From Oscillospiraceae bacterium (GTDB lineage Bacteria; Bacillota; Clostridia; Oscillospirales; Oscillospiraceae): 64,000 nt of DNA. Positions 37,623 through 57,801 of the stretch are shown piece after piece. The notes under the pieces were generated by a model. The model was not told where the DNA came from, did no database searches, and saw only the letters and a list, made by a program, of their open reading frames with translations. The translations under genes and the position numbers were made by a program. Positions within the stretch are counted from its first letter, which is position 1, and every line of letters starts with the position of its first letter. Where the stretch lies: the NCBI GenBank assembly GCA_015068495.1, contig SVKL01000008.1:13892-77891 (forward strand). The letters run 5' to 3'.

Positions 37623-38837
37623 ATGATGGGCTCTGAAATGAAGGTCAAGGCTGTTGGCTTTTGTGATGGTGTCTCTGTTTCCGCTATTGCCCCGTTGATG
37701 AATGATTTGTCCGTTGATGACGTATCTGAATATGCTGTTTTTCCCGGCTTTTGTGATGTGCACGTGCATTTCCGAGAGCCGGGATTTTCTTATAAAGAGA
37801 CCATTGAAAGCGGTTCAAAGGCATCTGCGCGGGGCGGTTACACAGCGGTTTGTACAATGCCCAACTTAAACCCCGTGCCGGACAGCGTGGCACATTTGGA
37901 CGAGCAGCTGAAACTGATTGAGGAGCAGGCGGTGATTCACGTCTACCCCTACGGCGCGATTACAGTGGGTGAGAAAGGTGAGCTGCTTGCAGATTTAGAG
38001 GGTATGGCGCCCAACTGTATTGCTTTTTCCGATGACGGACGAGGTGTGCAGAGCGATGATATGATGCGGCAGGCTATGCGCCGTGCCAAGGCACTGGGCA
38101 AAATGATTGTTGCCCACTGTGAGGTAAACGAGCTGCTGAAAGGCGGCTATATCCACGATGGTCAGTACGCAGCGGCTCATAACCACAAGGGCATCTGCAG
38201 CGCCAGCGAGTACGAACAAATCGCAAGAGATTTGCGCCTAGTGAGGGAAATCGGCTGCGCCTACCACGTGTGCCACATCTCCACGAAAGAGAGTGTGGAG
38301 CTGATCCGGCAGGCGAAGGCGGAAGGCTTGGATGTGACCTGTGAAACCGGCCCTCACTATCTGACGATGGACGACAGCTTCCTGCAGGAGGACGGCAGAT
38401 TCAAAATGAATCCTCCTTTGCGGGATAAAGCTGACAGGGAAGCGCTGGTTGCCGGTATTGTGGACGGCACAATCGATATGATTGCCACTGACCACGCGCC
38501 CCACAGCGCAGAAGAAAAGAGCAAGGGCTTAGCCGGCAGCGCCTTCGGTGTGGTTGGTATTGAAACAGCCTTCCCGGTGATGTATACCCACTTGGTAAAG
38601 TCCGGCGTGATTACTCTTGAAAAGCTTATTGACCTACTGAGCAATAACCCCCGTAAACGGTTTGGTCTGCCGGCAGGAAATGATTTTACAGTGTGGAATC
38701 TGAGTAAAGAATTTACAGTAGACCCGGCGCAATTCCTGTCTATGGGTAAGGCGACGCCCTTTGCTGGCTGGAAGTTAAATGGTGAATGTTTGCTGACCGT
38801 CTGCGACGGCAAGGCAGTGTATAAATTGGAGGAATGA
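37623..38837 (+). CDS. pyrC: Dihydroorotase (type I)
   Basis: DVHVHFREPG, TMPN, FSDDG, HVCHIST, KMNPPLR, ATDHAPH. Confidence 0.94.
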   Translation: MMGSEMKVKAVGFCDGVSVSAIAPLMNDLSVDDVSEYAVFPGFCDVHVHFREPGFSYKETIESGSKASARGGYTAVCTMPNLNPVPDSVAHLDEQLKLIEEQAVIHVYPYGAITVGEKGELLADLEGMAPNCIAFSDDGRGVQSDDMMRQAMRRAKALGKMIVAHCEVNELLKGGYIHDGQYAAAHNHKGICSASEYEQIARDLRLVREIGCAYHVCHISTKESVELIRQAKAEGLDVTCETGPHYLTMDDSFLQEDGRFKMNPPLRDKADREALVAGIVDGTIDMIATDHAPHSAEEKSKGLAGSAFGVVGIETAFPVMYTHLVKSGVITLEKLIDLLSNNPRKRFGLPAGNDFTVWNLSKEFTVDPAQFLSMGKATPFAGWKLNGECLLTVCDGKAVYKLEE

Positions 38838-38840
38838 AAA

Positions 38841-41800
38841 ATGGCAAAGAGAACGGACTTAAAGAAAATTCTGATTATCGGCTCCGGTCCTATCGTAATC
38901 GGTCAGGCCGCTGAATTTGACTATGCAGGTACACAGGCTTGCTTGGCGCTGAAGGAAGAGGGCTACGAGGTTGTCCTGTGCAACTCCAACCCTGCAACCA
39001 TTATGACGGATACTACCATTGCCGACAAGGTGTATATGGAGCCTCTGACACTGGAATATGTGGCAAAGATTATCCGCTACGAGCGTCCCGATGCCATTCT
39101 GCCCGGCATCGGCGGACAGACCGGTCTGAATCTTGTTATGCAGCTGGAGAAGAAGGGCGTTTTGAAGGAATGCCGCGTGGAGCTGCTGGGTACTTCCAGT
39201 GAATCCATCGAGCGGGCTGAGGACAGAGAACTGTTCAAGGAGCTGTGCCAGTCCATCGGCGAGCCTGTCATTCCCTCCGAGATTACCTATTCTATCGAGG
39301 AAGCGAAAGCGGCGGCTAAGCGGATTGGCTATCCTGTGGTGCTTCGTCCTGCCTTTACCTTGGGCGGCACCGGTGGCGGCTTTGCATATAGTGAAGAAGA
39401 GCTGGTGGAAATCGGCTTAAACGCATTTAAGCTGTCTCCTGTGCATCAGGTGCTCATTGAGAAATCCGTCAAGGGTTATAAGGAAATCGAATTTGAGGTT
39501 ATGCGTGACGGCAACGATCACGCCATCACCATCTGCGGTATGGAAAACATTGACCCTGTAGGCGTCCATACCGGCGATAGCTTGGTGGTTGCGCCGATTA
39601 TGACTCTGAGCGACCACGATTTGAAGATGCTGAACGATTCTGCTATCAAGATCATCAAGGAATTGAAGATTGCAGGTGGCTGTAACGTGCAGTTTGCCCT
39701 GAATCCCAATAGCTCTGAATACTACCTCATTGAGGTAAATCCCAGAGTTTCCCGTTCTTCCGCTTTGGCATCCAAGGCTTCCGGCTATCCCATTGCCCGC
39801 GTAACGGCTAAAATTGCCGTGGGTATGGCGCTGGAGGACATTAAGATTGCCAACACCAACGCTGCTTTCGAGCCGAAGCTGGACTATGTCATTGCCAAGC
39901 TGCCCCGTTTCCCCTTCGATAAGTTCACCTCTGCAACCAACCTGCTGGGCACCCAGATGAAAGCCACCGGTGAGGTTATGGGTATCGGCTCCAATCTGGA
40001 AGAAGCGCTGTTAAAGGGTATCCGTTCTCTGGAAATCGGCGCAAACCACCTGTACCTGTCCAAGTTTGACAATATGAGCGTGGAGGAGCTGCTGGACTAC
40101 ATCAAGCAGTTCCGTTCCGATAACATCTTTGCTATTGCGGAACTGCTGTACCACGGTGTTTCTGTGGAGAAGATTCACGAAATTACACAAATTACACCCT
40201 ACTTCCTGGAATCCATTCGCAAGATTATCGATATGGAGGAAGTCCTTCGGGTTAAGGTAAACGACGTGGATGCCCTGAAGCAGGCAAAGGTTATGGGCTT
40301 CAGCGACAGATATGTTGCACGGCTGTGGAAGTGCGCAGAAATGGATGTTTACAAGCTGCGTAAGGCCAACAATATGTTCCCGGTATTCAAGATGGTGGAT
40401 ACCTGCCATACCGGTGCATACATTCCTTATTTCTACTCCTCCTACACCGGAGAGAACACCTCTGTTCTTACCGATAAAAAGAAAATTGTGGTGCTGGGCG
40501 CCGGTCCTATCCGTATCGGTCAGGGTGTGGAATTTGACTATTCCACCGTTCACTCTGTAATGACCATTCGGGATGCAGGCTACGAGGCCATCATCATTAA
40601 CAACAACCCCGAAACCGTTTCCACCGACTACACCACCGCTGACAAGCTGTACTTTGAGCCACTGACACCTGAGGATGTTATGAACATCATTGAGTTTGAG
40701 AATCCTGTGGGTGTGGTTGCATCCCTTGGCGGTCAAACGGCTATCAATCTTGCTCAGCCTTTGGATGACCGGGGTGTAAAGATTATCGGCACAGATTGCG
40801 CTGCCATCGACAGAGCAGAGGACAGAAATGCCTTTGAAAACCTGCTCAACGACCTGAACATTCCCCGGGCTAAGGGTCAGGCTGTTACCAAGCTGGAAGA
40901 CGGTATTGCCGCCGCAGCGGAGATCGGCTATCCTGTGCTGGTGCGTCCTTCCTTTGTGCTGGGCGGCCGGGCAATGCAGATTGTTGCCAACGAGCAGCAG
41001 CTGCGTCACTACTTGCGTACCGCGGTTGAAATTGACGAGGACAAGCCCGTCTTGGTGGATAAGTATATTGAAGGCCGTGAAGTGGAGATTGACGCCATTT
41101 GCGACGGCCGGGATGTGTTTGTTCCCGGCATTATGGAGCTGGTAGAGCGTACCGGCGTCCACTCCGGCGACTCCATTTCTGTCTATCCCACCTTCTCTAT
41201 TTCCAACAAGGTTAAGGGTATCATCCTGCAGTATGCCAAAAAGCTGGGCTTGGGCATCGGCATTGTGGGTCTGTTCAATATCCAGTTCATCGTGGATAAG
41301 GACGATAATGTGTTTATTATCGAGGTAAATCCCCGTTCCTCCCGTACCGTGCCGTTCCTGAGTAAGGCAACCGGCTATTCCTTGGCAGATATTGCCACCG
41401 AGGTTATTTTGGGCAAGAGCCTGAAGGAGCAGGGCCTGTTTGACATCTACCCCGATGAGAAGGATCGCTGGTATGCCAAAGCACCTGTGTTCTCCTTCAA
41501 TAAAATCCGCGGACTGGACGCTTATCTGTCACCTGAAATGAAGTCCACCGGCGAAGCCATCGGCTACGACAGCACGATGAACCGCGCTTTGTATAAGGCG
41601 CTGCAGGCCTCCGGTATGCACCTGCAGAATTATGGTACTGTGCTGGTTACCATTGCAGACAAGGATAAGGAAGAGGCCCTGCCTTTGATTCGCCGCTTCT
41701 ATCAGCTGGGCTTCAACATTGAAGCAACTGAGGGCACTGCGGACTTCTTGAAAGCAAACGGAATCCGTACCCACAAGCTGGGCAAGATCGGCGACGGCAG

Positions 41801-42008
41801 CGAAGAGATTCCCAATGCGCTGCGTCAGGGCCACATTGCCTACGTGATTAACACCAAAGACCCCGGCAGCAACGGCAGTGACGGTGTGCAGATCCGTCAG
41901 ATTGCCACCGAGCATAATGTTTCTCTGTTCACTGCGTTGGATACCGTAAAGGTGCTGCTGGACGTTTTGGAAGAAACTACGCTGACCATTTCTACCATTG
42001 ATGCTTGA
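38841..42008 (+). CDS. carB: Carbamoyl-phosphate synthase large subunit
   Basis: GSGPIVIGQAAEFDYAG, two ATP-grasp halves, IEVNPRVSRSS and IEVNPRSSRT, C-terminal MGS domain. Confidence 0.97.
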   Translation: MAKRTDLKKILIIGSGPIVIGQAAEFDYAGTQACLALKEEGYEVVLCNSNPATIMTDTTIADKVYMEPLTLEYVAKIIRYERPDAILPGIGGQTGLNLVMQLEKKGVLKECRVELLGTSSESIERAEDRELFKELCQSIGEPVIPSEITYSIEEAKAAAKRIGYPVVLRPAFTLGGTGGGFAYSEEELVEIGLNAFKLSPVHQVLIEKSVKGYKEIEFEVMRDGNDHAITICGMENIDPVGVHTGDSLVVAPIMTLSDHDLKMLNDSAIKIIKELKIAGGCNVQFALNPNSSEYYLIEVNPRVSRSSALASKASGYPIARVTAKIAVGMALEDIKIANTNAAFEPKLDYVIAKLPRFPFDKFTSATNLLGTQMKATGEVMGIGSNLEEALLKGIRSLEIGANHLYLSKFDNMSVEELLDYIKQFRSDNIFAIAELLYHGVSVEKIHEITQITPYFLESIRKIIDMEEVLRVKVNDVDALKQAKVMGFSDRYVARLWKCAEMDVYKLRKANNMFPVFKMVDTCHTGAYIPYFYSSYTGENTSVLTDKKKIVVLGAGPIRIGQGVEFDYSTVHSVMTIRDAGYEAIIINNNPETVSTDYTTADKLYFEPLTPEDVMNIIEFENPVGVVASLGGQTAINLAQPLDDRGVKIIGTDCAAIDRAEDRNAFENLLNDLNIPRAKGQAVTKLEDGIAAAAEIGYPVLVRPSFVLGGRAMQIVANEQQLRHYLRTAVEIDEDKPVLVDKYIEGREVEIDAICDGRDVFVPGIMELVERTGVHSGDSISVYPTFSISNKVKGIILQYAKKLGLGIGIVGLFNIQFIVDKDDNVFIIEVNPRSSRTVPFLSKATGYSLADIATEVILGKSLKEQGLFDIYPDEKDRWYAKAPVFSFNKIRGLDAYLSPEMKSTGEAIGYDSTMNRALYKALQASGMHLQNYGTVLVTIADKDKEEALPLIRRFYQLGFNIEATEGTADFLKANGIRTHKLGKIGDGSEEIPNALRQGHIAYVINTKDPGSNGSDGVQIRQIATEHNVSLFTALDTVKVLLDVLEETTLTISTIDA

Positions 42009-42016
42009 TTTAATGT

Positions 42017-42042
42017 TGTAGCGCGGGGGCTTGCCCCCGCCG
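42017..42042 (+). repeat. GTAG-type REP-like palindrome
   Basis: TGTAG-CGCGGGGGC-TT-GCCCCCGCCG in the carB-pyrK gap. Confidence 0.55.
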
Positions 42043-42070
42043 AACAATACTATGTCAAACGGAGGAAACA

Positions 42071-42808
42071 ATGAAACAATCGAGTTTTACTGTTGTCAGC
42101 AATACCTCTCTGACTGACAATGTTTATAAAATGGTTCTGCAGGGCGACGTATCGGCTATTACTGCGCCGGGCCAGTTTGTCAACCTCAAGCTGGAGGGCC
42201 TGTATCTGCGCCGTCCCATCTCCGTGTGTGATTTGGATGGGGACAAGCTGACCATTGTTTATAAGGCGGTAGGTAAGGGAACAGAGCAGATGTCCCGTAT
42301 GACAGCAGGGGAGAAGCTGGATATTCTCACCGGCTTGGGCAACGGCTATGACCTGAGCCTGTCCGGCGAGAAGCCTGTGCTGCTGGGTGGCGGCGTAGGC
42401 GTGCCTCCTATGTATCTGCTTGCCAAAGAATTGCTGAAACAGGGCAAAAAAGTTTCTGTTATCTTGGGATTCAACACAAAATCCGAGATTTTCTACGAAG
42501 AAGAATTTGAAAAGCTTGGCTGCAATGTAACCGTTACAACCGTGGACGGTAGCTTTGGCACAAAAGGCTTTGTCACCACTGCATTGGAAGGGGTGGACTA
42601 TTCCTACTTCTATACCTGCGGTCCTGAGCCAATGCTGAAGGCTGTATATAAGGCATCCAATACTTCTGGGCAGATGAGCTTTGAAAAGAGGATGGGGTGT
42701 GGCTTTGGCGCATGTATGGGCTGCTCCTGCAAGACCCTCACCGGCTACAAGCGTATCTGCAAGGAAGGCCCTGTGATGAAAAAGGAGGAAATTCTATGGG
42801 AAGATTAA
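42071..42808 (+). CDS. pyrK: Dihydroorotate dehydrogenase electron transfer subunit
   Basis: PGQFV, RRPIS, GGGVG, CGPEPM, MGCGFGACMGC 2Fe-2S motif. Confidence 0.94.
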   Translation: MKQSSFTVVSNTSLTDNVYKMVLQGDVSAITAPGQFVNLKLEGLYLRRPISVCDLDGDKLTIVYKAVGKGTEQMSRMTAGEKLDILTGLGNGYDLSLSGEKPVLLGGGVGVPPMYLLAKELLKQGKKVSVILGFNTKSEIFYEEEFEKLGCNVTVTTVDGSFGTKGFVTTALEGVDYSYFYTCGPEPMLKAVYKASNTSGQMSFEKRMGCGFGACMGCSCKTLTGYKRICKEGPVMKKEEILWED

Positions 42809-43707
42809 GTGTTGACCTGTGTGGAATTACCCTTGATAATCCTGTAATTCCTGCCTCCGGCACCTTCGGCTACGGCTATGAGTATGCTGAAATTTATGAT
42901 ATCAACTGCCTTGGCACGTTCTCTTTTAAGGGCACAACCAAGGAGCCCCGTTTCGGCAACCCTACGCCCCGGATCGCTGAATGTACCGCCGGTATGATCA
43001 ATGCCGTTGGCTTGCAGAATCCCGGTGTGGAAAAGGTTATTGCCGAGGAACTACCGAAGCTGAAAAAATGCTTCCACAAGCCTGTTATGGCAAATATCAG
43101 CGGTTTTGGGGTAGAGGAGTATGCCTACACCTGCGAAAAGCTGGATAAGGAGGCGCAAGTCGGCTGGCTGGAAGTGAACGTCAGCTGTCCCAATGTCCAC
43201 GGCGGCGGTATGAGCTTCGGTACTGACCCGAAAGCAGCCGCTGAGGTGACGAAGGCAGTAAAGAAGGTCACCACCAAGCCGGTGATTGTAAAGCTGTCCC
43301 CCAACGTGACGGACATCGTTTCTATTGCAAAAGCCTGTGAAGATGCCGGCGCTGACGGTATCAGCCTGATTAACACAATGCTGGGTATGCGCATTGACCT
43401 GAAAACCCGCAAGCCGGTAATTGCCAACAAGATGGGCGGCTTCTCCGGCGCAGCAATTTTCCCTGTGGCGGTGCGTATGGTCTATCAGGTCGCCAATGCC
43501 GTCAAGATTCCCGTGGTGGGTATGGGCGGCGTAAGCAGTGCTGAGGACGTGATTGAGATGATGCTGGCTGGCGCAACTGCCGTTGAGGTGGGCGCAGCAA
43601 ACCTTGTGAACCCCTGCATTTGTCGGGATATTATCGAAGAACTTCCCGCAGTTATGGATAAATACAGAATCAATACATTAAGTGAAATTATCGGAGGTGC
43701 GAAATAA
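42796..43707 (+). CDS. pyrD: Dihydroorotate dehydrogenase B catalytic subunit
   Basis: [36 protein letters not shown]; ATG 42796 after AGGAGG. Confidence 0.95.
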
Positions 43708-44405
43708 TGGGTAAGGACGTGATTGTAGCCTGTGATTTTGCCAGCGCAGAGCAGACCTTTGCGTTTTTGGACAAGTTCACCGGCCGGAAGCCTTTCGTGA
43801 AAATCGGCATGGAGCTGTACTACGCAGAAGGCCCTGCCATCGTCAAGGAAATCAAGGCAAGAGGTCATAAGATTTTCTTGGATTTGAAGCTCCACGACAT
43901 TCCCAACACTGTCAAAAAGGCAATGGCAGTTTTGCGGAATCTGGATGTGGATATCACAAACCTGCACGCCGCCGGCACCAAGAATATGATGCGCGCCGCC
44001 TTGGAGGGCTTGACCCGTGAGGACGGCACCCGTCCGCTGCTGATTGCTGTGACCCAGCTGACCTCCACCGATCAGGAGAGTATGGAAAAGGACCTGCTCA
44101 TTGAAAAGCCTATTGATCAGGTGGTTATGCACTACGCCAAATGCGCCGAAGAGGCAGGTCTCGACGGCATCGTATGCTCACCGCTGGAGGCAGGCAAGGT
44201 CCACGATACCTGCGGCAAGAGCTTTTTGACTGTTACCCCCGGTGTCCGCTTTGCTGACGGCGATGTGGGTGACCAGAAGCGGGTTATGACCCCTGCGCAG
44301 GCTAAGGAAATCGGCTCCGACTATATTGTTGTGGGCCGTCCGATTACTGCTGCCGCCGACCCCGTGGCCGCCTACGAGCGCTGCATTGATGAATTCTGCG
44401 ACTAA
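43707..44405 (+). CDS. pyrF: Orotidine-5-phosphate decarboxylase
   Basis: [34 protein letters not shown]. Confidence 0.96.
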
Positions 44406-44408
44406 AAT

Positions 44409-44487
44409 TGTAGGGACCGGCGTCCTCGACGGTCCTATTGCAGAAGTCCGCTTTGCTGACGGACTGTCCGGGAGGCCAGTCCCTACA
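44409..44487. repeat. Inverted doublet of GTAG-type REP units (REPIN/BIME-like)
   Basis: TGTAGGGACCGGCGTCCTCGACGGTCC (44409-44435) and the reverse complement of TGTAGGGACTGGCCTCCCGGACAGTCC (44461-44487). Confidence 0.75.
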
Positions 44488-44512
44488 CATTTATCTTCAA
44501 AGGAGAACCATT

Positions 44513-45166
44513 ATGGAAGCCTATAAAAGAGAATTCATTGAATTCCTGCAGGATGCAGGTGTGTTGAAATTTGGCGATTTTACAGCCAAATCCGGCCGTA
44601 AAATTCCTTATTTTGTCAATGCCGGTATGATTAAGACCGGTGACCAAATTACCAAAATGGGCGAGTTCTACGCCAAGGCTTATTTTGACAAGCTGGGTAA
44701 AAAGCAGGCTGTCCTGTACGGACCTGCCTATAAGGGTATTTCTCTGTCCATTTCTGCCGCTGTGGCGCTGTCCCGTAACGGTCTGAATGTTCCTTTCTTC
44801 TTTAACCGTAAGGAAGTGAAAGACCACGGTGAAGGCGGTACATTCGTAGGCTACGTTCCTCAGGCCGGCGAAGAAATCGTCATAATTGAAGACGTAATTA
44901 CAGCCGGCACTGCTATCCGTGAGTCTATGGAAATCCTCAGCCACTTGGATGGCACGAAAGTTATTGCCACCTTCATTATGGTTGACCGGAAAGAGAAGGG
45001 TCAGACCGAGAAGGGTGCTATGCAGGAGATTGAAGAGCAGTTCGGCTTCCCTGTGTACTCTGTTGTGGACGTTTATGACATTATCGAGTATTTGGAGGAA
45101 GACCCTGCCAACGAAGAAAACGTTACCCGTATTAAGAACTATCTGGCTGTGAATGGAGCGAAATAA
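44513..45166 (+). CDS. pyrE: Orotate phosphoribosyltransferase
   Basis: [40 protein letters not shown]; ATG 44513 after AAGGAG. Confidence 0.95.
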
Positions 45167-46254
45167 TGAGAAGCTTGATTGACATTGTAGATTTTTCCGT
45201 TGAGGAAATTCAGCAGCTGCTGGAGACTGCCTGCGACATCAGCGAAAATCCTGCAAAGTATGCAGAACGCTGCCGTGGCAAGAAGCTGGCAACGCTGTTC
45301 TATGAGCCTTCCACCCGTACCCGCCTTAGCTTTGAAGCGGCTATGTATGAGTTGGGCGGTAACGTGCTGGGCTTTAGCGAGGCGGCATCTTCTTCTGCCG
45401 CAAAGGGAGAGAGCATGGCAGACACTGCAAAAATGCTCTCCTGCTATGCGGATATTATGGCAATCCGTCATCCCAAGGAGGGTGCGCCTTTCGTAGCTGC
45501 AACCAATGCCACCATTCCCGTTATCAATGCCGGTGATGGCGGCCATTGCCACCCCACACAGACCTTGGCTGACCTGCTGACCGTTTATCGGGAAAACGGA
45601 AGACTCCACGATTTGACCATCGGCTGCTGTGGTGATTTGAAATATGGCAGAACGGTGCACTCCTTGATATCTGCTTTTTCACGGTACGACAATATCAAGT
45701 TTGTCCTGATTTCTCCCGAAGAGCTGAAGCTACCCAAGTACGTAAAGTATGAGGTGCTGGATAAAAACGGTATGCAGTATGTGGAAACAACCTCTTTGGA
45801 GGAGGCAATGCCGCAGCTGGATGTTTTGTATATGACCCGTATCCAACGGGAGCGCTTTGACAGCTTTGACGAGTATGAGCGTTTGAAGGACAGCTATATT
45901 CTGACACCTGAGAAGATGGCAGCGGCTAAGCCCACTATGCGCGTGCTGCACCCCCTTCCCAGAGTGAATGAAATCAGCGTAAAGGTGGATGAAGATCCCC
46001 GGGCAGCCTATTTCCGCCAGGCGCTGAACGGCAAGTATATGCGTATGGCGCTGATTCTCAAGCTGCTCAAAGAGGCTGAGGAAGGCAAGCAGATGGAGCC
46101 GGTGAATGCTGTGGAGAACAGTGCTCTTATCTGTGATAACCCCCGCTGTATTTCCTCTACCGAGCAGGAGCTTCCCCACAGATTTAAGCTGGTGGATGCA
46201 GAACGTGGCATTTACCGGTGCATCTATTGCGAGGGTAAAAAAACCTTGGGTTGA
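45166..46254 (+). CDS. pyrB: Aspartate carbamoyltransferase with a fused C-terminal PyrI-type zinc domain
   Basis: [29 protein letters not shown]; extension CDNPRC...RCIYCE. Confidence 0.94.
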
Positions 46255-46352: not shown

Positions 46353-46369
46353 GTTTACAGTGATGAATA

Positions 46370-46478: not shown

Positions 46479-46497
46479 AGGTTTTAGGAGGTAATGT

Positions 46498-46986: not shown

Positions 46987-47028
46987 TTTCTGAGTTATAC
47001 ACTCACTATGATAAAGGAGAAATTGATT

Positions 47029-49163: not shown

Positions 49164-49177
49164 ATAAGGAGAAGCGT

Positions 49178-50230
49178 ATGGAACATAAGAATTCCCAGTC
49201 TGCCAGCTATGCTGCTGCCGGTGTGGACATTACCGCCGGCTATAAGGCTGTTGAACTGATGAAGAAGCATATCAAGCGCACAAAAAATGAGGGCTGCTTG
49301 GACGATGTTGGCGGCTTTGGCGGCTGCTTTGGTCTGAACATTGCCGGTATGGAAGAGCCTGTGCTGGTCTCCGGTACAGACGGCTGCGGCACAAAAGTCA
49401 AGCTTGCTATTTTAATGGACAAGCACGATACCATCGGTATTGACGCGGTGGCAATGTGCGTTAACGATATTATCTGCTGCGGCGCAAAGCCTTTGTTTTT
49501 CCTTGATTACATTGCTTGCGGTAAGAATTATCCCGAGAAAATCGCGGCCATTGTGGGCGGCGTAGCAGAGGGCTGCGTTCAGTCCGGCGCAGCGCTCATC
49601 GGCGGTGAAACTGCCGAGCATCCCGGCTTGATGCCGCTTGAAGACTATGACCTTGCAGGCTTTGCAGTTGGTGTTGTGGACAAGAAGAAAATTATCGACA
49701 ACACCCGTATGGCAGCAGGGGATGTGGTGATTGCGCTGGCATCTACCGGTATCCATTCTAACGGTTTCTCTCTGTGCCGTAAGGTGTTTGATATTGATAA
49801 CAACCCGGCAGAGCTGTATGTTGCCCGTGAGGAGTTGGACGGTAAGAGTGTTGCAGAAGCGTTGCTCGTACCTACACGTATCTACGTAAAGTCCATCCTT
49901 GCTCTGTTGGAGCAGGTGGATGTAAAGGGTATCTCCCACATCACCGGCGGCGGCTTTTATGAGAATATTCCCCGTTCCATCCCCGATGGCTTGGGTGCAG
50001 TAATCGAAAAGAATGCTGTTAAGGTGCTGCCTATTTTCGATATGATTGCCAAGACCGGCAATATCCCTGAGCGTGATATGTTCAACACCTACAATATGGG
50101 TGTGGGTATGAGCGTCGTGGTAAAGCCTGAGGAAGTAGAGAAGGCATTGGAAATCCTTACCGCCCACGGGGAAAATGCCTATGTGATCGGTAAGATTGTA
50201 GCCTCTGACGAGAAGATTACCATTGTGTGA
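49178..50230 (+). CDS. purM: Phosphoribosylformylglycinamidine cyclo-ligase
   Basis: YAAAGVDI, GTDGCGTK, AMCVND, GGETAEHPG, SHITGGG. Confidence 0.97.
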   Translation: MEHKNSQSASYAAAGVDITAGYKAVELMKKHIKRTKNEGCLDDVGGFGGCFGLNIAGMEEPVLVSGTDGCGTKVKLAILMDKHDTIGIDAVAMCVNDIICCGAKPLFFLDYIACGKNYPEKIAAIVGGVAEGCVQSGAALIGGETAEHPGLMPLEDYDLAGFAVGVVDKKKIIDNTRMAAGDVVIALASTGIHSNGFSLCRKVFDIDNNPAELYVAREELDGKSVAEALLVPTRIYVKSILALLEQVDVKGISHITGGGFYENIPRSIPDGLGAVIEKNAVKVLPIFDMIAKTGNIPERDMFNTYNMGVGMSVVVKPEEVEKALEILTAHGENAYVIGKIVASDEKITIV

Positions 50231-50238
50231 GGTAGGAA

Positions 50239-50835
50239 ATGGTGAAAGCGAGAATTGCTGTGCTGGTGTCCGGCGGCGGCACGAACCTGCAGGCGCTGAT
50301 TGACGCGCAAGGCAGCGGAATTATTCACAGCGGAGAAATCTGCCTTGTGATTTCCAATAATCGGGATGCCTATGCTTTGCAGCGCGCGGCAAATGCGGGA
50401 ATAGCCACCGAGGTTGTCCTGAAAAAGGAACTGGGCAGCCAAGCCGCATTTGAAGAGAAAATCAAAGAATTGCTCACCGAAAATAGGATTGACATCATTG
50501 TTCTTGCGGGCTTTATGTCCATTTTAAGTGAGGCGTTCACCTCCTGCTATCCCAAGCGGATTCTCAATGTCCACCCGTCGCTGATTCCGTCTTTTTGCGG
50601 TGAGGGCTTTTATGGTCTCCGGGTTCACGAGGCAGCGCTTAATTATGGCGTGAAGGTCACCGGCGCAACCGTTCACTTTGTTAACGAGATTCCCGACGGC
50701 GGTGAGATCATTCTCCAAAAGGCTGTGGAAATTCAGCCGGAGGACACACCTGAAACCCTGCAAAAACGGGTGATGGAACAAGCAGAATGGAAGATTTTAC
50801 CTGCCGCAGTTGAGCAGGTTTGCAGTATGCTGTGA
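50239..50835 (+). CDS. purN: Phosphoribosylglycinamide formyltransferase
   Basis: SGGGTNLQA, LAGFM, NVHPSLIP, GATVHFV..DGG. Confidence 0.96.
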   Translation: MVKARIAVLVSGGGTNLQALIDAQGSGIIHSGEICLVISNNRDAYALQRAANAGIATEVVLKKELGSQAAFEEKIKELLTENRIDIIVLAGFMSILSEAFTSCYPKRILNVHPSLIPSFCGEGFYGLRVHEAALNYGVKVTGATVHFVNEIPDGGEIILQKAVEIQPEDTPETLQKRVMEQAEWKILPAAVEQVCSML

Positions 50836-50851
50836 GAAAGGAATTTGCAAT

Positions 50852-51565
50852 ATGAATGTTTATGAAGTTGGCTCTCTTGCTGAGAAGCTGTCTACCAATG
50901 TGTATCCCGGCCGTGGCATTGTGTTAGGTGTAACTCCCGACGGCACTAAGTCTGTTGCTGCTTATTTCATTATGGGCCGCAGCGTCAATAGTCGCAACCG
51001 TGTGTTTGTACAGGAGCCGGACGGTATCCGCACCGAAGCTCATGATCCCAGCCTGATGAAAGACCCTCATCTGATTATTTACCATCCTGTCCGTGAAGCA
51101 GGCTGTGGTTTGATTGTTACCAACGGTGACCAGACCGATACCATTTGGGAATACCTTGCCAAGGGCGAAAGCTGGGAAGCTGCTCTGCGTACCCGTTGTT
51201 TCGAAGATGACGGCCCTAACTGGACACCTCGTATTTCCGGCTTGCTGGCAGGTGACGGAAGCTACAAGATGTCCATTTTGAAGTCTGCTGATGCAGAGGG
51301 CACAGCCTGCGCAAGATTTTTCTATGAGTATCCTGCAATCGCCGGACTGGGTCACTTTATCCACACCTATGTGTGCGATGGTAACCCCGTAATCCCCACA
51401 TTCCAAGGGGAGCCGGAGCGTGTGGCTATGGATAACGATATGGATGCCTTTGCGGAAATGCTGTGGAACAACTTGAATGAAGACAATAAAATCTCCCTGT
51501 TCGTCCGTTACACTGATTTGAAGACCGGCAGCTACGAGCAGAAGATTTACAACAAACATAACTAA
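50852..51565 (+). CDS. purO: Stand-alone IMP cyclohydrolase, PurO-like (Ntn fold)
   Basis: YPGRGI, YFIMGRS.NSRNR, LIIY, VTNGDQTD, FEDD.PNWTPRISG; ATG 50852. Confidence 0.85.
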   Translation: MNVYEVGSLAEKLSTNVYPGRGIVLGVTPDGTKSVAAYFIMGRSVNSRNRVFVQEPDGIRTEAHDPSLMKDPHLIIYHPVREAGCGLIVTNGDQTDTIWEYLAKGESWEAALRTRCFEDDGPNWTPRISGLLAGDGSYKMSILKSADAEGTACARFFYEYPAIAGLGHFIHTYVCDGNPVIPTFQGEPERVAMDNDMDAFAEMLWNNLNEDNKISLFVRYTDLKTGSYEQKIYNKHN

Positions 51566-51577
51566 GGAGTAGGGAAG

Positions 51578-52762
51578 ATGAAAGAGTTTGAACTGAAATA
51601 CGGCTGTAACCCCAATCAAAAGCCTGCAAAGATTTATATGCACGACGGCACCGACCTGCCCATCCAGATTCTCAACGGCCGCCCCGGCTTTATTAATTTC
51701 CTGGATGCCTTCAACTCTTGGCAGCTGGTGAAGGAGCTGAAGGAAGCTACCGGTATGTGCGCTGTTACCTCTTTTAAGCACGTTTCTCCTACTTCTGCCG
51801 CTGTTGGCAAGAAGCTGCCTATAGAGCTGAAAAAGGCTTGCTTTGTGGAAGATATCGAAGGCTTGGATGAGAATCCTTTGGCTTGCGCATATGCCCGTGC
51901 CCGTGGTGCAGACCGTCTGTGCTCCTTTGGCGACTGGGTGGCACTGAGTGACACCTGCGACGCGCTGACAGCCAAGCTCATTGCCCGCGAGGTATCCGAC
52001 GGCGTGATTGCTCCCGGCTACACCGATGAGGCGCTGGAGATTCTGAAGACCAAACGTGGCGGCAACTATAACGTAGTTGCTATTGACCCCAACTTCGTTC
52101 CTGCTGAACAGGAAACCAAGCAGGTGTTCGGTATTACTTTCCAGCAGGGCCGCAACAACTTCAAAATTGACAATGCACTTTTGGAGAACATTGTTACTGA
52201 TAATAAGAACTTTACCGAGGACGCAAAGACTGACTTGATCATCTCCCTGATTACCCTGAAGTACACACAGTCTAATTCCGTCTGCTTTGCTTATGACGGA
52301 CAGGCTATCGGTGTTGGTGCCGGTCAGCAGTCCCGTGTGCACTGCGTAAGACTTGCAGGCGGTAAGGCTGACACTTGGTTCCTCCGCCAGCACCCCAAGA
52401 CCTTGAATCTTCCTTTCCGCGAGGACTTGGGCCGTCCCGGCCGTGACAATGCCATCGACGGCTATATCAACGGCAACGAGGAGGATGTCTGCGCTGAGGG
52501 TATCTGGCAGAACTACTTTACCACCCGTCCCGAGCCTCTGACCGAGGCTGAAAAGCGTGCATTCTTGGATGCGCAGACCGGTGTTGCGCTGGGTTCTGAC
52601 GCTTTCTTCCCGTTCCCGGACAGTATTAAGCGTGCTAAAGCCTCCGGTGTTTCCTACGTCGCTGAGCCCGGCGGCTCTATCCGTGATGACCTTGTGATTG
52701 CTGAGTGCAATAAGAATAATATGGTTATGGCATTCACCGGAATGCGTCTGTTCCACCACTAA
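51578..52762 (+). CDS. purH: AICAR transformylase lacking the IMP cyclohydrolase domain
   Basis: LKYGCNPNQ, FKHVSP, KYTQSNSV, GAGQQSRVHC, SDAFFPF, GMRLFHH; no MGS-like N-terminal domain. Confidence 0.92.
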   Translation: MKEFELKYGCNPNQKPAKIYMHDGTDLPIQILNGRPGFINFLDAFNSWQLVKELKEATGMCAVTSFKHVSPTSAAVGKKLPIELKKACFVEDIEGLDENPLACAYARARGADRLCSFGDWVALSDTCDALTAKLIAREVSDGVIAPGYTDEALEILKTKRGGNYNVVAIDPNFVPAEQETKQVFGITFQQGRNNFKIDNALLENIVTDNKNFTEDAKTDLIISLITLKYTQSNSVCFAYDGQAIGVGAGQQSRVHCVRLAGGKADTWFLRQHPKTLNLPFREDLGRPGRDNAIDGYINGNEEDVCAEGIWQNYFTTRPEPLTEAEKRAFLDAQTGVALGSDAFFPFPDSIKRAKASGVSYVAEPGGSIRDDLVIAECNKNNMVMAFTGMRLFHH

Positions 52763-52837
52763 AATACCTTTGCCACACCGTCTTTTGCGGTGTGGCAATC
52801 GGTCTGTTTTACGAATCTGACATTTTGGAGAGTATCT

Positions 52838-54106
52838 ATGAAAATATTGGTTGTTGGCGGTGGCGGAAGAGAACATGCCATCATTAAAAAACTGAAAGAG
52901 AATAAGACAGTTACAGAAATTTTTGCAACCCCCGGCAATGGCGGTATTGCCAAGGATGCTACCTGTGTAGACATCGGCGCAAAGGAGATTGATAAAATTG
53001 TTGCCTTTGCAGTTGAGAATGCCATTGACTATGCGGTGGTTGCTCCCGATGACCCTCTGGTGCTGGGTTGCGTAGACGCATTGGAGGAGAAGGGGATTCC
53101 TTGCTTTGGACCTCGCGCCAATGCTGCCATTATTGAAGGCAGTAAGGTTTTTTCCAAAAACCTGATGAAAAAATATAATATTCCCACTGCAGCGTATGAA
53201 GTGTTCACCGATATGGATGCGGCAATTTCCTATTTGGAAACTGCTCCAATTCCTACGGTCATCAAGGCTGACGGACTTGCATTGGGCAAGGGCGTTATTA
53301 TTGCGGAAACCCGTGAGGATGCCAAGGCTGCTGTGAAATCTATGATGTCCGATAAGGTCTTCGGCAAAAGCGGTGACCAGATTGTCATTGAGGAATTCCT
53401 CACCGGTCCTGAGGTGTCTGTGCTTGCCTTTACCGACGGCAAGACAGTGAAGCCTATGATTTCCTCTATGGACCATAAGCGGGCAGGGGATAACGATACA
53501 GGCCTCAACACCGGCGGCATGGGCACGGTTGCTCCCAACCCCTACTACACTGCCGATATTGCTAAGGTGTGTATGGAAACCATTTTCCTGCCTACCATCG
53601 CCGCAATGAATGCCGAGGGCCGTACCTTTAAGGGCTGCTTGTACTTTGGCTTGATGCTCACCCCCAACGGCCCTAAGGTTATTGAGTACAACTGCCGTTT
53701 CGGCGACCCGGAGACGCAGGTGGTGCTGCCGCTGCTGGAAAGTGATCTGCTCACCGTTATGCAGGCAACCACCAACGGCACCTTGGCAGAAACCGAGGTT
53801 AAATTTGCCGACAAGAACGCCTGCTGCGTGATTATGGCGTCCAAGGGTTATCCCACCGCCTACGAAAAGGGCTTTGAGATGACCGTTCCGGAGGCAATTT
53901 GGAATAATGTCTATGTGGCAGGCGCTGCATTAAAGGACGGAAAGCTTCTGACAAACGGCGGCCGTGTCCTTGGCGCAACTGCTGTTGCTGACACCTTAGA
54001 GAACGCCATTAACGAGGCTTATAAAATGGTAGAAACCATTCATTTTGACAATGCTTATTATCGTCACGATATTGGCGCGAAGGCTATGAAAGCCGGGAGG
54101 AATTAA
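52838..54106 (+). CDS. purD: Phosphoribosylamine--glycine ligase
   Basis: VVGGGGREHA, KADGLALGKGV, EYNCRFGDPE, TNGGRVL; ATG 52838. Confidence 0.97.
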   Translation: MKILVVGGGGREHAIIKKLKENKTVTEIFATPGNGGIAKDATCVDIGAKEIDKIVAFAVENAIDYAVVAPDDPLVLGCVDALEEKGIPCFGPRANAAIIEGSKVFSKNLMKKYNIPTAAYEVFTDMDAAISYLETAPIPTVIKADGLALGKGVIIAETREDAKAAVKSMMSDKVFGKSGDQIVIEEFLTGPEVSVLAFTDGKTVKPMISSMDHKRAGDNDTGLNTGGMGTVAPNPYYTADIAKVCMETIFLPTIAAMNAEGRTFKGCLYFGLMLTPNGPKVIEYNCRFGDPETQVVLPLLESDLLTVMQATTNGTLAETEVKFADKNACCVIMASKGYPTAYEKGFEMTVPEAIWNNVYVAGAALKDGKLLTNGGRVLGATAVADTLENAINEAYKMVETIHFDNAYYRHDIGAKAMKAGRN

Positions 54107-54108
54107 CA

Positions 54109-57100
54109 TTGGTTTATAGAGTATATGTAGAGAAAAAAGAAGCGCTTGCAAACGAAGCAAAGGCTCTTTTGAACGATGCCCGCAACCTGCTGGGGATTAA
54201 GGCGCTGGAGAATGTTCGCCTGCTGAACCGCTATGATGCAGAAAATATTACAAAAGAGCTGTTCGATTATGCAATCGATACCGTGTTTTCTGAGCCCCAG
54301 CTGGACATTGCCACAGCTGAATATGAGTTAGCAGGCGCTACGGTGTTTGCCGTTGAGCCGCTGCCCGGTCAGTTTGACCAGCGAGCCGACTCCGCTGCTC
54401 AGTGTATTCAGATTATTTCTCAAGGTGAGCGTCCGCTGATTCGCTCCGCTAAGGTGTACGGTCTGTACGGCAAGCTGACAGAGGAAGAAATCACCGCGAT
54501 TAAAAAACACGTGATTAACCCTGTGGAATGCCGTGAAGCAGAGCTGACCCTGCCCGAAACGTTGAAAGCAGATTACGCTATCCCGCAGTCCGTTGCTACC
54601 GTTGACGGCTTCATCGGATTAGACGAAAAGGGCCTTTCTGATTTGCTGGACAAGCTGGGTCTTGCGATGGATCTGGACGATTTGAAGTTCCTGCAGAACT
54701 ACTTCCGTGACGAAGAAAAGCGCGACCCTACGATTACCGAAATCCGTGTTGTGGATACCTACTGGTCTGACCACTGCCGTCACACTACCTTCTCCACCAT
54801 CATTGACGATGTAAAAATTTCCGATCCCGCAGTGGCTGCTGCCTACAAGCGTTATTTGGATGCCCGTGTGGAAGTCTATGGAGAAGAGAAGGCTGCAAAG
54901 CGTCCTCAGACACTGATGGATATTGCCACTATCGGCGCAAAGACTTTGAAGAAGCGTGGATTGCTGCCCGAGCTGGACGAGAGCGAGGAAATCAACGCCT
55001 GCTCTATCCACGTTACTGCAAAGGTAAATGGCGAAGATCAGGACTGGCTGCTGATGTTCAAGAACGAGACCCACAACCATCCCACCGAGATTGAGCCTTT
55101 TGGCGGCGCAGCCACCTGTATCGGCGGCTGTATCCGTGACCCTTTGTCCGGCCGTGCATACGTCCATCAAGCAATGCGTGTTACCGGCGCAGCTGATCCC
55201 CGCAAGCCTCTGAATGAGACCATTCCCGGCAAGCTGCCCCAGCGTAAGCTGTGTCAGACTGCCGCAGCCGGCTATTCCTCATACGGCAACCAAATCGGTC
55301 TTGCTACCGGTCACGTTGCAGAAATCTATCACGATGGCTACGCCGCAAAGCGCTTGGAGTGTGGCGCAGTTGTTGGCGCAGCGCCTGCCTACAACGTACG
55401 CCGTGAGCGTCCCGCAGCCGGCGATGTGGTTGTGCTGCTGGGTGGCCGTACCGGCCGTGACGGTATCGGCGGCGCTACCGGTTCTTCCAAGAGTCACAAT
55501 ATGAAATCCCTGACCACAATGGCTTCCGAAGTCCAAAAGGGTAATGCTCCCGAGGAACGGAAGATTCAGCGCTTGTTCCGGGATAGCGCTGTTACCCGTT
55601 TGATTAAGCGCTGCAACGACTTTGGCGCAGGCGGTGTGTCTGTTGCTATCGGTGAGTTGGCTGCCGGTCTGCAGATTGACTTGGATGCTGTTCGCAAGAA
55701 GTATGATGGCTTGGACGGTACCGAAATCGCTATCTCCGAATCTCAGGAGCGTATGGCAGTTGTGGTTGCAGCTGAGGATGCGGATACCTTTATCGCAGCA
55801 GCCCAGAAAGAAAATCTGGAAGCTTATCGTGTGGCTGTGGTCACCGAAGAAGAAAGAATGGTGATGGTCTGGAAGGGTCAGACAGTTGCAAATCTGTCCC
55901 GCGCATTTTTGGACACCAACGGCGCCAGCAAGCATACCAAGGTTGACGTTACCGAAAAGGACCTGTCCGTGCTGAGCAACGCCCTGTACGGCAGCCTGCG
56001 TGAGATGGCAGGGGATTTGAAGACTGCCAGCCGCAGAGGCCTTGTGGAGCGTTTTGACGGTAGTATCGGCGCAGGCTCTGTGCTGATGCCCTTTGGCGGC
56101 AAAACACAGACCACTCCCGCCCAAGCAATGGCAGCTGTGCTGCCCGTCCTGCCCGGTCAGGAAACCAGTCAGGGCAGTGTAATGGCTTGGGGTCTAGATC
56201 CCGATATGATGAGCGTGGATCCTTACACCGGCTCCCGCGCCGCCATCTATACTTCTATGGCAAAGCTGGTTGCAGCCGGCGCTGACTATAAGAAAGCTTA
56301 CCTGACCCTACAGGAGTTCTTTGAAAAGCTGAAAGCTGAGCCTGCCCGCTGGGGCAAGCCCTTTGCAGCGCTCCTTGGCGCACTGGATGCCCAGCTGGAG
56401 CTGGGTGCTGCTGCCATCGGCGGTAAGGATTCTATGTCCGGTTCCTTTATGGATATGGACGTGCCGCCCACGCTGATTTCTTTTGCAATCGCTCCCATTG
56501 ATAAGGAGCAGGTGCTCACTCCCGAATTTAAGACCGCCGGCAATCCGGTTTACCTCTTCGGACCTACCGATGAGACCGCTGAGAGCCAAAAGCAGGCTTG
56601 GGAATACTTCCACCAGCTGCACCTTGCCGGTAAAGTCAACGCCGGCTGGGCGGTGGAGAATGGCTTGGGCGAAGCGGTGATGAAGATGTCCTTCGGTAAC
56701 CGCATCGGTTTTGCCTCCTGCGGCGCTGTGGGCGAGGAATGGCACAAGAACCTCTACGGCTTTATTGTGGCTGAGCTGACCGAAGATGTTGACCTGCCCG
56801 GCGTGCTGAAGATTGGCGAAACCACTGCCGAAGCAGCAATTGTTTTGGACGGTGACAGCGCATCTATCGACGAGCTGCTTGCCATCAATGAAGGCATTTT
56901 GGAGGATGTATATACCACTGTTGTTCCTGAGGATAAGGGTCAGATTCCTGCCTTTAACTACACCGGCACGGTTGCGAAGGCACCTGCTGTAAAGTGTGCA
57001 AAGCCCAAGGTGCTGATCCCTGTATTCCCCGGTACCAACTGTGAGTTTGACTCCGCCCGTGCGGTTATTGCAGCAGGCGCTGACGCAGAAATCGCCGTAA

Positions 57101-57801
57101 TTCGCAACCTGACCGCTGATGATGTTGCCAAGAGCGTGGAAAGCGTAGCTGCGAAGATTGCAGACAGCCAGATGATTTTCATTCCCGGCGGTTTCTCCGG
57201 CGGTGACGAGCCGGACGGCTCTGCCAAGTTCATTACCGCCTTCTTCCGCAACCCTGCCATCAAGGAGCAGGTGACAAAGCTGCTGGAAGAGCGGGACGGC
57301 TTGATGTGCGGCATCTGTAACGGCTTCCAAGCGCTGATTAAGCTGGGCTTGGTGCCTTACGGCAAGATTATTGATACCGACGAGAATTGCCCCACCTTGA
57401 CCTTCAATACCATTTCCCGTCACCAGTCCAAAATTGTCCGTACCCGTATCGCATCCAACAAGTCGCCTTGGCTGAGGCTGATGAATGTGGGTGACGTTGT
57501 GAATGTTCCCATTTCCCACGGCGAGGGTCGCTTCTATGCATCTGAGGAATTGGCAATGAAATTGGCTGAAAACGGTCAGATTGCCACCCAGTATGTGGAC
57601 TTGGACGGCAATCCCACTATGGATACCGCTTTCAACCCCAACGGCTCTCTGTTTGCTATCGAGGGTATTACCTCTCCCGACGGCAGAGTCATCGGTAAGA
57701 TGGGTCACAGCGAGCGTATCGGCGCAGGCCTTTACAAGAACGTACCTGGTAACTACGATATCCGTATGTTTGAAGCCGCAGTTAAATATTTTAAGGGCTA
57801 A
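54109..57801 (+). CDS. purL: Fused large FGAM synthase (PurS-PurL-PurQ)
   Basis: WSDHCRH, KNETHNHPTEIEPFGGAAT, DFGAGG, ISESQERM; GATase FPGTNCE, GICNGFQ, GHSER. TTG start. Confidence 0.97.
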   Translation: MVYRVYVEKKEALANEAKALLNDARNLLGIKALENVRLLNRYDAENITKELFDYAIDTVFSEPQLDIATAEYELAGATVFAVEPLPGQFDQRADSAAQCIQIISQGERPLIRSAKVYGLYGKLTEEEITAIKKHVINPVECREAELTLPETLKADYAIPQSVATVDGFIGLDEKGLSDLLDKLGLAMDLDDLKFLQNYFRDEEKRDPTITEIRVVDTYWSDHCRHTTFSTIIDDVKISDPAVAAAYKRYLDARVEVYGEEKAAKRPQTLMDIATIGAKTLKKRGLLPELDESEEINACSIHVTAKVNGEDQDWLLMFKNETHNHPTEIEPFGGAATCIGGCIRDPLSGRAYVHQAMRVTGAADPRKPLNETIPGKLPQRKLCQTAAAGYSSYGNQIGLATGHVAEIYHDGYAAKRLECGAVVGAAPAYNVRRERPAAGDVVVLLGGRTGRDGIGGATGSSKSHNMKSLTTMASEVQKGNAPEERKIQRLFRDSAVTRLIKRCNDFGAGGVSVAIGELAAGLQIDLDAVRKKYDGLDGTEIAISESQERMAVVVAAEDADTFIAAAQKENLEAYRVAVVTEEERMVMVWKGQTVANLSRAFLDTNGASKHTKVDVTEKDLSVLSNALYGSLREMAGDLKTASRRGLVERFDGSIGAGSVLMPFGGKTQTTPAQAMAAVLPVLPGQETSQGSVMAWGLDPDMMSVDPYTGSRAAIYTSMAKLVAAGADYKKAYLTLQEFFEKLKAEPARWGKPFAALLGALDAQLELGAAAIGGKDSMSGSFMDMDVPPTLISFAIAPIDKEQVLTPEFKTAGNPVYLFGPTDETAESQKQAWEYFHQLHLAGKVNAGWAVENGLGEAVMKMSFGNRIGFASCGAVGEEWHKNLYGFIVAELTEDVDLPGVLKIGETTAEAAIVLDGDSASIDELLAINEGILEDVYTTVVPEDKGQIPAFNYTGTVAKAPAVKCAKPKVLIPVFPGTNCEFDSARAVIAAGADAEIAVIRNLTADDVAKSVESVAAKIADSQMIFIPGGFSGGDEPDGSAKFITAFFRNPAIKEQVTKLLEERDGLMCGICNGFQALIKLGLVPYGKIIDTDENCPTLTFNTISRHQSKIVRTRIASNKSPWLRLMNVGDVVNVPISHGEGRFYASEELAMKLAENGQIATQYVDLDGNPTMDTAFNPNGSLFAIEGITSPDGRVIGKMGHSERIGAGLYKNVPGNYDIRMFEAAVKYFKG

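Follow-up and report, generated by a model that had tools for sequence, protein, structure and literature searches.

How are pyrimidines and purines made in a gut bacterium whose enzymes at the entry of both pathways lack the parts that take nitrogen from glutamine? This question is raised by a single run of 16 plus-strand genes, pyrC to purL, at positions 37623-57801 of a 64,000-nucleotide stretch of DNA from an Oscillospiraceae bacterium. The whole stretch, called the window below, is part of contig C22 of assembly G000, a metagenome-assembled genome (MAG) of 1.77 Mb in 40 contigs that is 92.9% complete. In textbook nucleotide synthesis, nitrogen comes from glutamine and aspartate. Here, we think it reasonably probable that the window holds an ammonia-type pyr-pur super-operon of Faecousia-like gut Oscillospiraceae, in which synthase-only isozymes would be fed by free ammonia (NH3). 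The evidence is computational throughout and comes mostly from MAGs. The nearest named relatives are Faecousia and other Oscillospiraceae MAGs. A search of sequencing runs found near-identical DNA in animal faecal and gut metagenomes, in agreement with the ammonia-rich gut or rumen habitats invoked in a first-pass annotation of this DNA; runs that held less than one-fifth of the words sampled, among them the only RNA run (share 0.05), were not used for conclusions on habitat or expression.

In regard to the pyrimidine pathway, only 3 nt, and no carA, separate the pyrC stop from the start of carB; the absence of carA here had been noticed in the first-pass annotation, and carA was not found elsewhere in the 92.9%-complete assembly, where the best match reached 24.6 bits against a cut-off of 307 bits and tblastn with CarA of the same genus was blank. 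The encoded large subunit of carbamoyl phosphate synthetase (CPS) is nevertheless full length, with two ATP-grasp halves, the oligomerisation domain and the MGS-like allosteric domain (NF003671 residues 1-1047; four Pfam domains). Carbamate kinase was not found in G000, leaving no other route to carbamoyl phosphate by that enzyme, and ArgG and ArgH are present; by established pathway knowledge, this CarB would therefore also have to feed arginine synthesis. Forty relatives (41 genomes including G000, the same set throughout) were searched for ten features. An orphan CarB of the same kind, 80-91% identical to that of the window, situated in the pyr operon and never adjoining carA, is present in 26 of the 40, which belong to five GTDB families, whereas the paired CarB, which directly adjoins carA, is 67-73% identical to the window protein. 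The orphan proteins form a clade with 100/100 support apart from the paired ones, and remain 83-85% identical across GTDB families in G031, G037, G038 and G039 (L107-L110). In the tree, the orphan CarBs of these four genomes interleave with those of the genus, and the super-operon may have moved laterally.

The contacts of this CarB with the small subunit had been described as eroded in the first-pass annotation. General erosion was rejected, because a relative-rate test with distant paired CarBs as outgroup gave almost equal distances for orphan and paired proteins (0.391 versus 0.384 for residues 1-400), with no domain evolving faster and no excess divergence; the orphan clade is also internally more uniform than the paired one. 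What stands, weakly, is a small patch. Sixteen sites are conserved in paired and outgroup CarBs and altered in orphans, and ten of them belong to the carboxyphosphate domain; in the reverse direction, there are four changes. Five of the orphan-specific changes (K259H, E260D, R265N, L269I and F292S, the E. coli numbering being the same in this part) fall within residues 259-292. At position 265, the orphan clade has Asn, while human CPS1 has Arg at the equivalent site. Beta-Arg265 is reportedly the large-subunit residue replaced in the tunnel-perforating alphaP360A/alphaH361A/betaR265A mutant of Kim and Raushel from 2004; if this holds, R265N would be a plausible entry from the solvent for NH3.

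The purine pathway presents a comparable picture at its first enzyme, a PurF homologue here called PurF*. Aligned with Bacillus subtilis PurF (1ao0) and with the canonical PurF of the relatives, it has lost the residues of the glutaminase site, as had been claimed from the first reading: Cys1 is replaced by Gly in the N-terminus MGGFFG, HRG has become HLG (Arg26 to Leu), HNGN has become TVGV (Asn101 to Val), and Asp127 (SDTE) is gone, behind an insertion of five residues. An alternative start that would supply the cysteine was not found. An AAGGAG Shine-Dalgarno sequence and an in-frame TAA stand immediately upstream, the TAA four codons before the start with no start codon in between, so a longer N-terminus is excluded and the TGC codon of the spacer cannot be translated. 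The type I phosphoribosyltransferase domain is kept, with DSG and DDSIVRGT (1ao0 alignment over residues 3-415, E = 3e-42), and Cys235, Cys387, Cys466 and Cys469, invariant or nearly so in the family, match the ligands of the 4Fe-4S cluster. A canonical purF was not found anywhere in the 92.9%-complete assembly.

The N-terminus MGGFFG recurs in 68 of 70 PurF* loci; across the whole family, position 2 varies among G, S, T, A, K and D, and it is Gly in the clade of the window. A near-invariant GxDYHSHLG (residues 20-33; 47739-47830) stands where canonical enzymes have the LQHRG of the glutamine site; within it, members only 33-62% identical all have Y23, and almost all have D22 and H26. The family is found in Clostridia and in Bacteroidota such as Muribaculaceae. 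PurF* is the only PurF homologue in 17 of the 41 related genomes, and canonical PurF is also absent from nine of 12 further PurF*-bearing genomes, among them the cultured isolate Evtepia gabavorous, which has PurF* only, yet possesses carA and PurB. Since PurF* is the sole PurF in many genomes, including that of a cultured organism, it must presumably act as a functional first enzyme of the purine pathway, independently of canonical PurF.

A third synthase without a glutaminase was found outside the window, in the formation of guanosine monophosphate (GMP). Inspection of guaA, pyrG and glmS had been suggested in the first-pass annotation: pyrG and glmS were not found in G000, and guaA consists of its synthetase half only. 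This GuaA-C is 333 aa long (G000:C19:22156-23157; L015:5157-6158), comprises the ATP-pyrophosphatase and dimerisation half (440 bits on TIGR00884) and matches NF000848 at profile positions 194-512 only, with no N-terminal glutaminase domain. The open reading frames (ORFs) upstream encode a GNAT acetyltransferase and an LPG-synthase-C protein; no glutaminase gene lies nearby, and a GuaA-type glutaminase subunit was not found in G000. Stand-alone GuaA-C is 71-88% identical across relatives, while full-length GuaA is 49-57% identical to the G000 copy. G000 has GuaA-C only, and in some relatives both forms coexist, adjacent to each other in G038.

PurL keeps a complete glutaminase, its triad (Cys1070, His1200, Glu1202) being intact in GICNGFQ at 1068 and GHSER at 1199, as first noted. 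Besides PurL (PF13507), the only class I glutaminase domains of G000 (PF00117) are those of HisH and of a Peptidase_C26 protein at G000:C9, which carries the Cys and His-Glu motifs. The latter was rejected as a partner of the synthases, as it resembles gamma-glutamyl hydrolases and is not linked to the pyr or pur operons. AsnB of G000 retains its Cys1. A further asparagine-synthase-like protein of 524 aa (G000:C10:117304-118878; L009:1375-2949) has no recognisable glutaminase domain and adjoins a polysaccharide-biosynthesis flippase; it was set aside as an extra glutaminase, looks unrelated, and probably amidates a sugar or polymer.

The pyr and pur genes are all intact. Between G000 and G024, the ratio of nonsynonymous to synonymous substitution (dN/dS) is 0.04-0.11 for every gene for which it could be computed, with saturated dS (carB 0.05, purC* 0.08); for purF*, dN is 0.135 and dS is too saturated for a ratio. 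The pyr-pur gene order is also kept in another GTDB family (G039). The entry enzymes of both pathways are thus under strong purifying selection, in genomes that are each devoid of the canonical set of genes described further below. The 16 genes of the run are as follows.

37623-38837, plus strand: pyrC, dihydroorotase (NF006837, 500.9 bits; TIGR00857, 370.9 bits)
38841-42008, plus strand: carB, orphan CPS large subunit, 1055 aa (NF003671, 1441 bits)
42071-42808, plus strand: pyrK, electron-transfer subunit of dihydroorotate dehydrogenase B (NF000799, 245.9 bits)
42805-43707, plus strand: pyrD, dihydroorotate dehydrogenase (NF005574, 436.9 bits from ORF residue 35); the start is approximate, as the ORF opens at 42697
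43707-44405, plus strand: pyrF, orotidine monophosphate decarboxylase (NF001273, 295.8 bits)
44438-45166, plus strand: pyrE, orotate phosphoribosyltransferase (TIGR00336, 151.6 bits); the true start is probably some 16-34 codons inside the ORF, the alignment with G024 beginning at residue 17
45166-46254, plus strand: pyrB, aspartate carbamoyltransferase catalytic chain with a PyrI_C zinc domain (TIGR00670, 353 bits)
46498-46986, plus strand: purE (TIGR01162, 187.6 bits)
47008-47715, plus strand: purC*, divergent homologue of SAICAR synthetase (TIGR00081, 112 bits, cut-off 189.9)
47739-49163, plus strand: purF*, PurF homologue with the glutaminase residues replaced (TIGR01134, 160 bits, cut-off 350)
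49178-50230, plus strand: purM (TIGR00878, 429.4 bits)
50239-50835, plus strand: purN (TIGR00639, 205.5 bits)
50810-51565 (ORF), plus strand: purO-type inosine monophosphate (IMP) cyclohydrolase (PF07826, 200 bits from residue 32); the start is likely near 50897
51578-52762, plus strand: purH, formyltransferase only, acting on aminoimidazole carboxamide ribonucleotide (AICAR) (NF005492, 652.8 bits)
52790-54106, plus strand: purD (TIGR00877, 519.5 bits)
54109-57801, plus strand: purL, single-chain formylglycinamidine ribonucleotide synthase (TIGR01857, 1716 bits; PF13507, GATase_5, 279 bits)

The window has the order purE-purC-purF*-purM-purN-purO-purH-purD-purL, and so do most of 80 related loci. 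Some other features of the run deserve mention. PyrB carries at its C-terminus the zinc domain of PyrI (PF02748, residues 321-357), without the nucleotide-binding half of the regulatory chain. An archaeal-type PurO stands beside a PurH with formyltransferase only (50810-52762), and this pairing is kept in most related loci. The genes that directly follow purL (57915-59737) were rejected as members of the pathway, as they encode an extracytoplasmic function (ECF) sigma factor and a DUF4179/DUF5643 anti-sigma-like protein.

The meaning of this core set becomes clearer from the genes that accompany it in relatives. In G022, a minus-strand cluster (L010, G022:C69:174-17862) consists of an amt-PII fusion, asnB, purC, purA, purB, guaA, glmS, pyrG, purF, carA and carB, that is, nearly all steps at which nitrogen is drawn from glutamine or aspartate, with glutamine synthetase genes just beyond. 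Parts of this amt-adjacent arrangement are seen again in three GTDB families, represented by G016, G027 and G040. We call these amt-headed genes using glutamine or aspartate the canonical set, and the genomes devoid of it all-minus genomes. When the G022 proteins were used as tblastn queries, carA, pyrG, glmS, purA, purB and amt were not found in G000. Essentially the same all-minus pattern is shared by 13 of the 40 relatives, including G037 (100% complete), G039 (98%) and G031 (99%, but with carA), and such genomes are small, 1.2-2.1 Mb, except for one 3.5-Mb bin that is 70% complete. PurA and PurB are absent together from exactly the same 14 of the 41 genomes, including ones 98-100% complete, and PyrG is absent from these too; in several genomes that have both, purA and purB lie on different contigs.

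A co-loss of carA and canonical purF, which the first-pass annotation had advised to look for across genomes, was found in part. Of the relatives with a completeness of 90% or more, six are without carA or canonical purF, and five of these lack both (G002, G014, G026, G037 and G039), while G031 lacks canonical purF and has carA, as does Evtepia gabavorous. The PurF*-only and carA-less traits are thus linked in this lineage and can be separated elsewhere. The canonical purF copies left in G002 and G026 are interrupted, by a frameshift or by an internal TAG. The G002 locus (99% complete genome; L014, G002:C26:817-7644) is a decaying cluster, in which carA is gone, only about the last 300 residues of the paired carB product are left and canonical purF carries a frameshift and falls into two ORFs, while pyrG, purB and purA are intact, as are orphan CarB and PurF* in the same genome. 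Excision breakpoints could not be defined in a synteny test, because hardly any of the genes on either side of the cluster in G007 and G022 has an orthologue in G000.

The picture from these sequences is that the lineage lost, or never had, the canonical set, and that orphan CarB, PurF* and GuaA-C are separate, old isozyme families, found side by side with a full canonical set in many relatives. The idea of a parallel loss of glutamine dependence at two steps, put forward in the first-pass annotation, therefore holds in so far as both entry enzymes are without a glutaminase, but they did not decay in place; instead of "loss in place", one should speak of ammonia-type isozymes that were retained where the canonical module was lost or is absent. 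Likewise, both entry steps are affected as proposed, but the change is wider than two steps, with GuaA devoid of its glutaminase, PurC devoid of its aspartate motif, and PyrG, GlmS, PurA and PurB not found in G000. The original observation was largely right, and its interpretation was right in direction and too narrow in scope.

Nitrogen supply in these genomes can be judged from further genes. Amt was not found in five genomes without carA and is present in all 14 controls. Glutamate dehydrogenase (GDH) is present in all five carA-less genomes. G000 has GDH and also a type III glutamine synthetase. In the whole set, Amt was not found in 15 of the 17 genomes without carA and in 12 of the 24 with it, the p-value of 0.018 overstating the evidence, because the genomes are related to one another. 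The lack of Amt together with the presence of GDH fits a high-ammonia lifestyle. We propose that three nitrogen-adding isozymes, namely orphan CarB, PurF* with its non-catalytic N-domain and GuaA-C, would work as synthases only. Since no Amt transporter was found, free NH3 would diffuse into the cell and enter the synthase sites of these enzymes directly, yielding carbamoyl phosphate, phosphoribosylamine and GMP, respectively. The glutamine made by the type III glutamine synthetase could then be kept for PurL, HisH and AsnB and for the making of proteins. The amt/PII-headed canonical set of the relatives would plausibly serve when ammonium is scarce, while G000 and its small-genome relatives have the ammonia-type set only. 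A saving of glutamine-synthetase ATP could follow from such an arrangement, which we only infer.

An unexpected member of the run is PurC*. In human PAICS, four residues, Lys228 and Arg232 (K-x3-R) as well as Thr40 and Lys191, bind aspartate by its two carboxylates (PMC9376930). The corresponding C-terminal LDKDRFRRD is present in every canonical PurC from the clusters of the relatives, whereas PurC* ends with ...LFFA and is without it (PF01259 covers profile positions 2-203 of 233). PurC* thus shares with canonical PurC its fold, its operon position and the motifs on the side of ATP and carboxyaminoimidazole ribonucleotide (CAIR), such as DIKFEFG, and differs in that the aspartate-binding K-x3-R is gone. 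Among 8,000 scored metagenomic protein clusters, identity in PurC* is also high, at 91-95% across the 120 best. All ten PurB-less genomes checked have only a PurC without the motif, which is PurC* in nine of them and a different short form in G037. Because the aspartate motif is absent and PurB-less genomes have only such proteins, we hypothesize that PurC* could use NH3 and yield AICAR directly. Alternatively, a promiscuous ArgH could be involved; the only other members of the fumarate-lyase family in G000 are ArgH and AspA. Two ORFs of G000 belong to the Glucosamine_iso family, which includes NagB, and an enzyme of this kind may make glucosamine-6-phosphate from ammonia in place of GlmS.

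Taken to its end, this line of thought leads to essentially ammonia-only nucleotide synthesis with at least one unknown reaction, in which PurC* joins NH3, in place of aspartate, to CAIR, so that PurB is bypassed on the way to AICAR and would not be needed for IMP synthesis. We regard this extension as rather doubtful. The joint absence of PurA, PurB and PyrG from 14 of the 41 genomes would then have one of two meanings: IMP would be converted to adenosine monophosphate (AMP), and uridine triphosphate (UTP) to cytidine triphosphate (CTP), by undiscovered NH3-dependent aminations, or adenine and cytosine compounds would be salvaged and those of guanine and uracil made de novo, and the amt-PII-headed canonical genes would represent a swappable module for low ammonium.

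It is also possible that the nitrogen of the synthases has an organic donor, either through an unrecognised glutaminase or amidase that docks to them or through hydrolysis of another amide by the N-domain of PurF*, although we consider this unlikely. The strong conservation of that domain at Y23, D22 and H26 could be explained in this way, the more so as Ser or Thr, which are in principle N-terminal nucleophiles, occupy the Cys1 position in some members; but this position, residue 2, is variable and is Gly in the present clade, and therefore is not a conserved nucleophile, and the oxyanion and glutamine-binding residues have all been replaced. Orphan CarB keeps most positions conserved in paired CarBs, which favours this reading, and a class I amidotransferase-fold protein does exist in the genome in the form of the Peptidase_C26 protein, but this is the one that resembles gamma-glutamyl hydrolases and is not linked to the operons. 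The first-pass annotation had named the glutaminase domain of PurL as a possible source of ammonia for the other enzymes. Nothing was found in support of this; the domain is fused to its own synthase and tunnelled into it, and we know of no precedent for its sharing with other enzymes. The lack of Amt and presence of GDH are also in better accord with high ammonia.

Another explanation, which we hold to be still less likely, is that the pattern is an artefact of assembly, with the missing genes situated on unassembled or unbinned contigs and the glutaminase-less genes being secondary isozymes only. Every all-minus genome is a MAG, G000 falls short of completeness and is divided into 40 contigs, and G022 has all the genes in question on one 39-kb contig, in an accessory region without G000 orthologues. 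However, the same pattern is found in G037, which is 100% complete in 20 contigs, in G039 and partly in G031, and the joint absence of PurA and PurB concerns the same 14 genomes even though their genes occupy different contigs where present in several others. G002 keeps physical remnants of the deletion, all-minus genomes carry stand-alone GuaA-C in place of the full GuaA, and Amt is absent from all five all-minus or carA-less genomes. That the operons are relics without flux in a nucleotide auxotroph living on salvage is very improbable, because, although textbook enzymes cannot complete AMP, CTP or IMP when PurA, PurB, PyrG and GlmS are not found, and although the genomes are small (again bar the 3.5-Mb bin), all 16 genes are intact with low dN/dS, their order is conserved across GTDB families, PurC* is nearly uniform across the best metagenomic clusters, and the presence of ArgG and ArgH means that arginine synthesis also needs carbamoyl phosphate.

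Several points weigh against the synthase-only use of free NH3 that we favour. Ammonia as the substrate of the PurF*, CarB and GuaA-C families is something we infer from their sequences, and the affinity of such enzymes for NH3 is usually poor. Orphan CarB may still bind CarA where both coexist, since it keeps nearly all positions conserved in the paired proteins and occurs together with CarA in many genomes. The strong conservation of the N-domain of PurF* indicates that it is not simply dead and may have another role. The absence of the canonical set from G000 is to be read as "not found" and not as proven, because this MAG is incomplete and its nearest relative by CarB, G022, carries the cluster. 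Finally, the pathways appear incomplete by known enzymes, with PurB, PurA and PyrG missing and no known route to AMP or CTP, and the claim that the operons are functional therefore rests on purifying selection.

If the proposed use of free NH3 is true, abundant Clostridia of the gut and rumen, and apparently some Bacteroidota in the case of PurF*, would carry parallel ammonia-using isozymes, and some lineages would rely on the ammonia-type set alone, without an ammonium transporter. Models of how nitrogen flows through gut and rumen communities, and of how far these depend on ammonia, would change as a result. The proposed use of NH3 would also explain gaps in the pathways of MAGs, in which proteins labelled "glutamine-hydrolysing" have no glutaminase and carA, purB, purA and pyrG are missing, and it would make PurF*, orphan CarB, GuaA-C and especially PurC* candidates for new enzyme specificities. 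A first test is made practical by Evtepia gabavorous, which is in culture and has PurF* only. In the literature, no description of a bacterial orphan CarB or of a bacterial PurF without the cysteine was found, only the archaeal PurF' and general papers on CPS and PAICS. What is new here would be the bacterial families PurF*, orphan CarB, GuaA-C and PurC*, the division into a core set and a swappable amt-headed cluster, and the lineages that have the core only.

In regard to known systems, the ATP-pyrophosphatase (ATPPase) subunit of archaeal GMP synthetase is able to use NH4+ alone. In two reports (bioRxiv 10.1101/2022.02.27.481963; PMC10526850), the archaeal enzyme is described as consisting of separate glutamine amidotransferase (GATase) and ATPPase subunits. 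GuaA-C resembles it in having the ATP-pyrophosphatase and dimerisation half as a separate polypeptide, and differs in being the C-terminal half of a bacterial GuaA, for which no glutaminase subunit was found in G000.

The use of ammonia by the synthase domains of amidotransferases is classical, and vertebrate CPS I is ammonia-dependent. The latter has a dead glutaminase domain and a separate entry of ammonia has been proposed for it, and E. coli CPS with a blocked or perforated ammonia tunnel is fully active on external ammonia (PMC4655335). Like these tunnel mutants, CPS I and E. coli CarB alone, orphan CarB is proposed here to be a synthase that takes external NH3 without being fed by a glutaminase; unlike CPS I, it has no glutaminase subunit or domain at all and is bacterial. 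Bacillus and Lactobacillus have two CPS isozymes (pyrAA/AB and carAB), each with its own small subunit. The likeness lies in two CarB paralogues per genome, one of them in the pyr operon, but the pyr-operon CarB described here has no small subunit. In a review from 2018, heterodimers and fusions are the only forms of CPS listed for bacteria (PMC6022934).

For PurF*, Cys1 mutants of E. coli PurF are known to retain the use of NH3 (cited in PMC3261824), and a similar protein is the crenarchaeal PurF' (Brown, Hoopes, White and Sarisky 2011, Biol Direct, PMC3261824), which is likewise a paralogue without the N-terminal cysteine situated among purine genes. Its authors proposed, as a proposal only, that it is an ammonia-dependent phosphoribosyl pyrophosphate (PRPP) aminotransferase (PMC3261824). 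PurF* differs from it in being bacterial, in having its own DYHSHLG motif and in keeping the Fe-S cysteines. Furthermore, the crenarchaea each also carry a PurF with the cysteine, whereas the bacterial PurF* is the sole homologue in many genomes.

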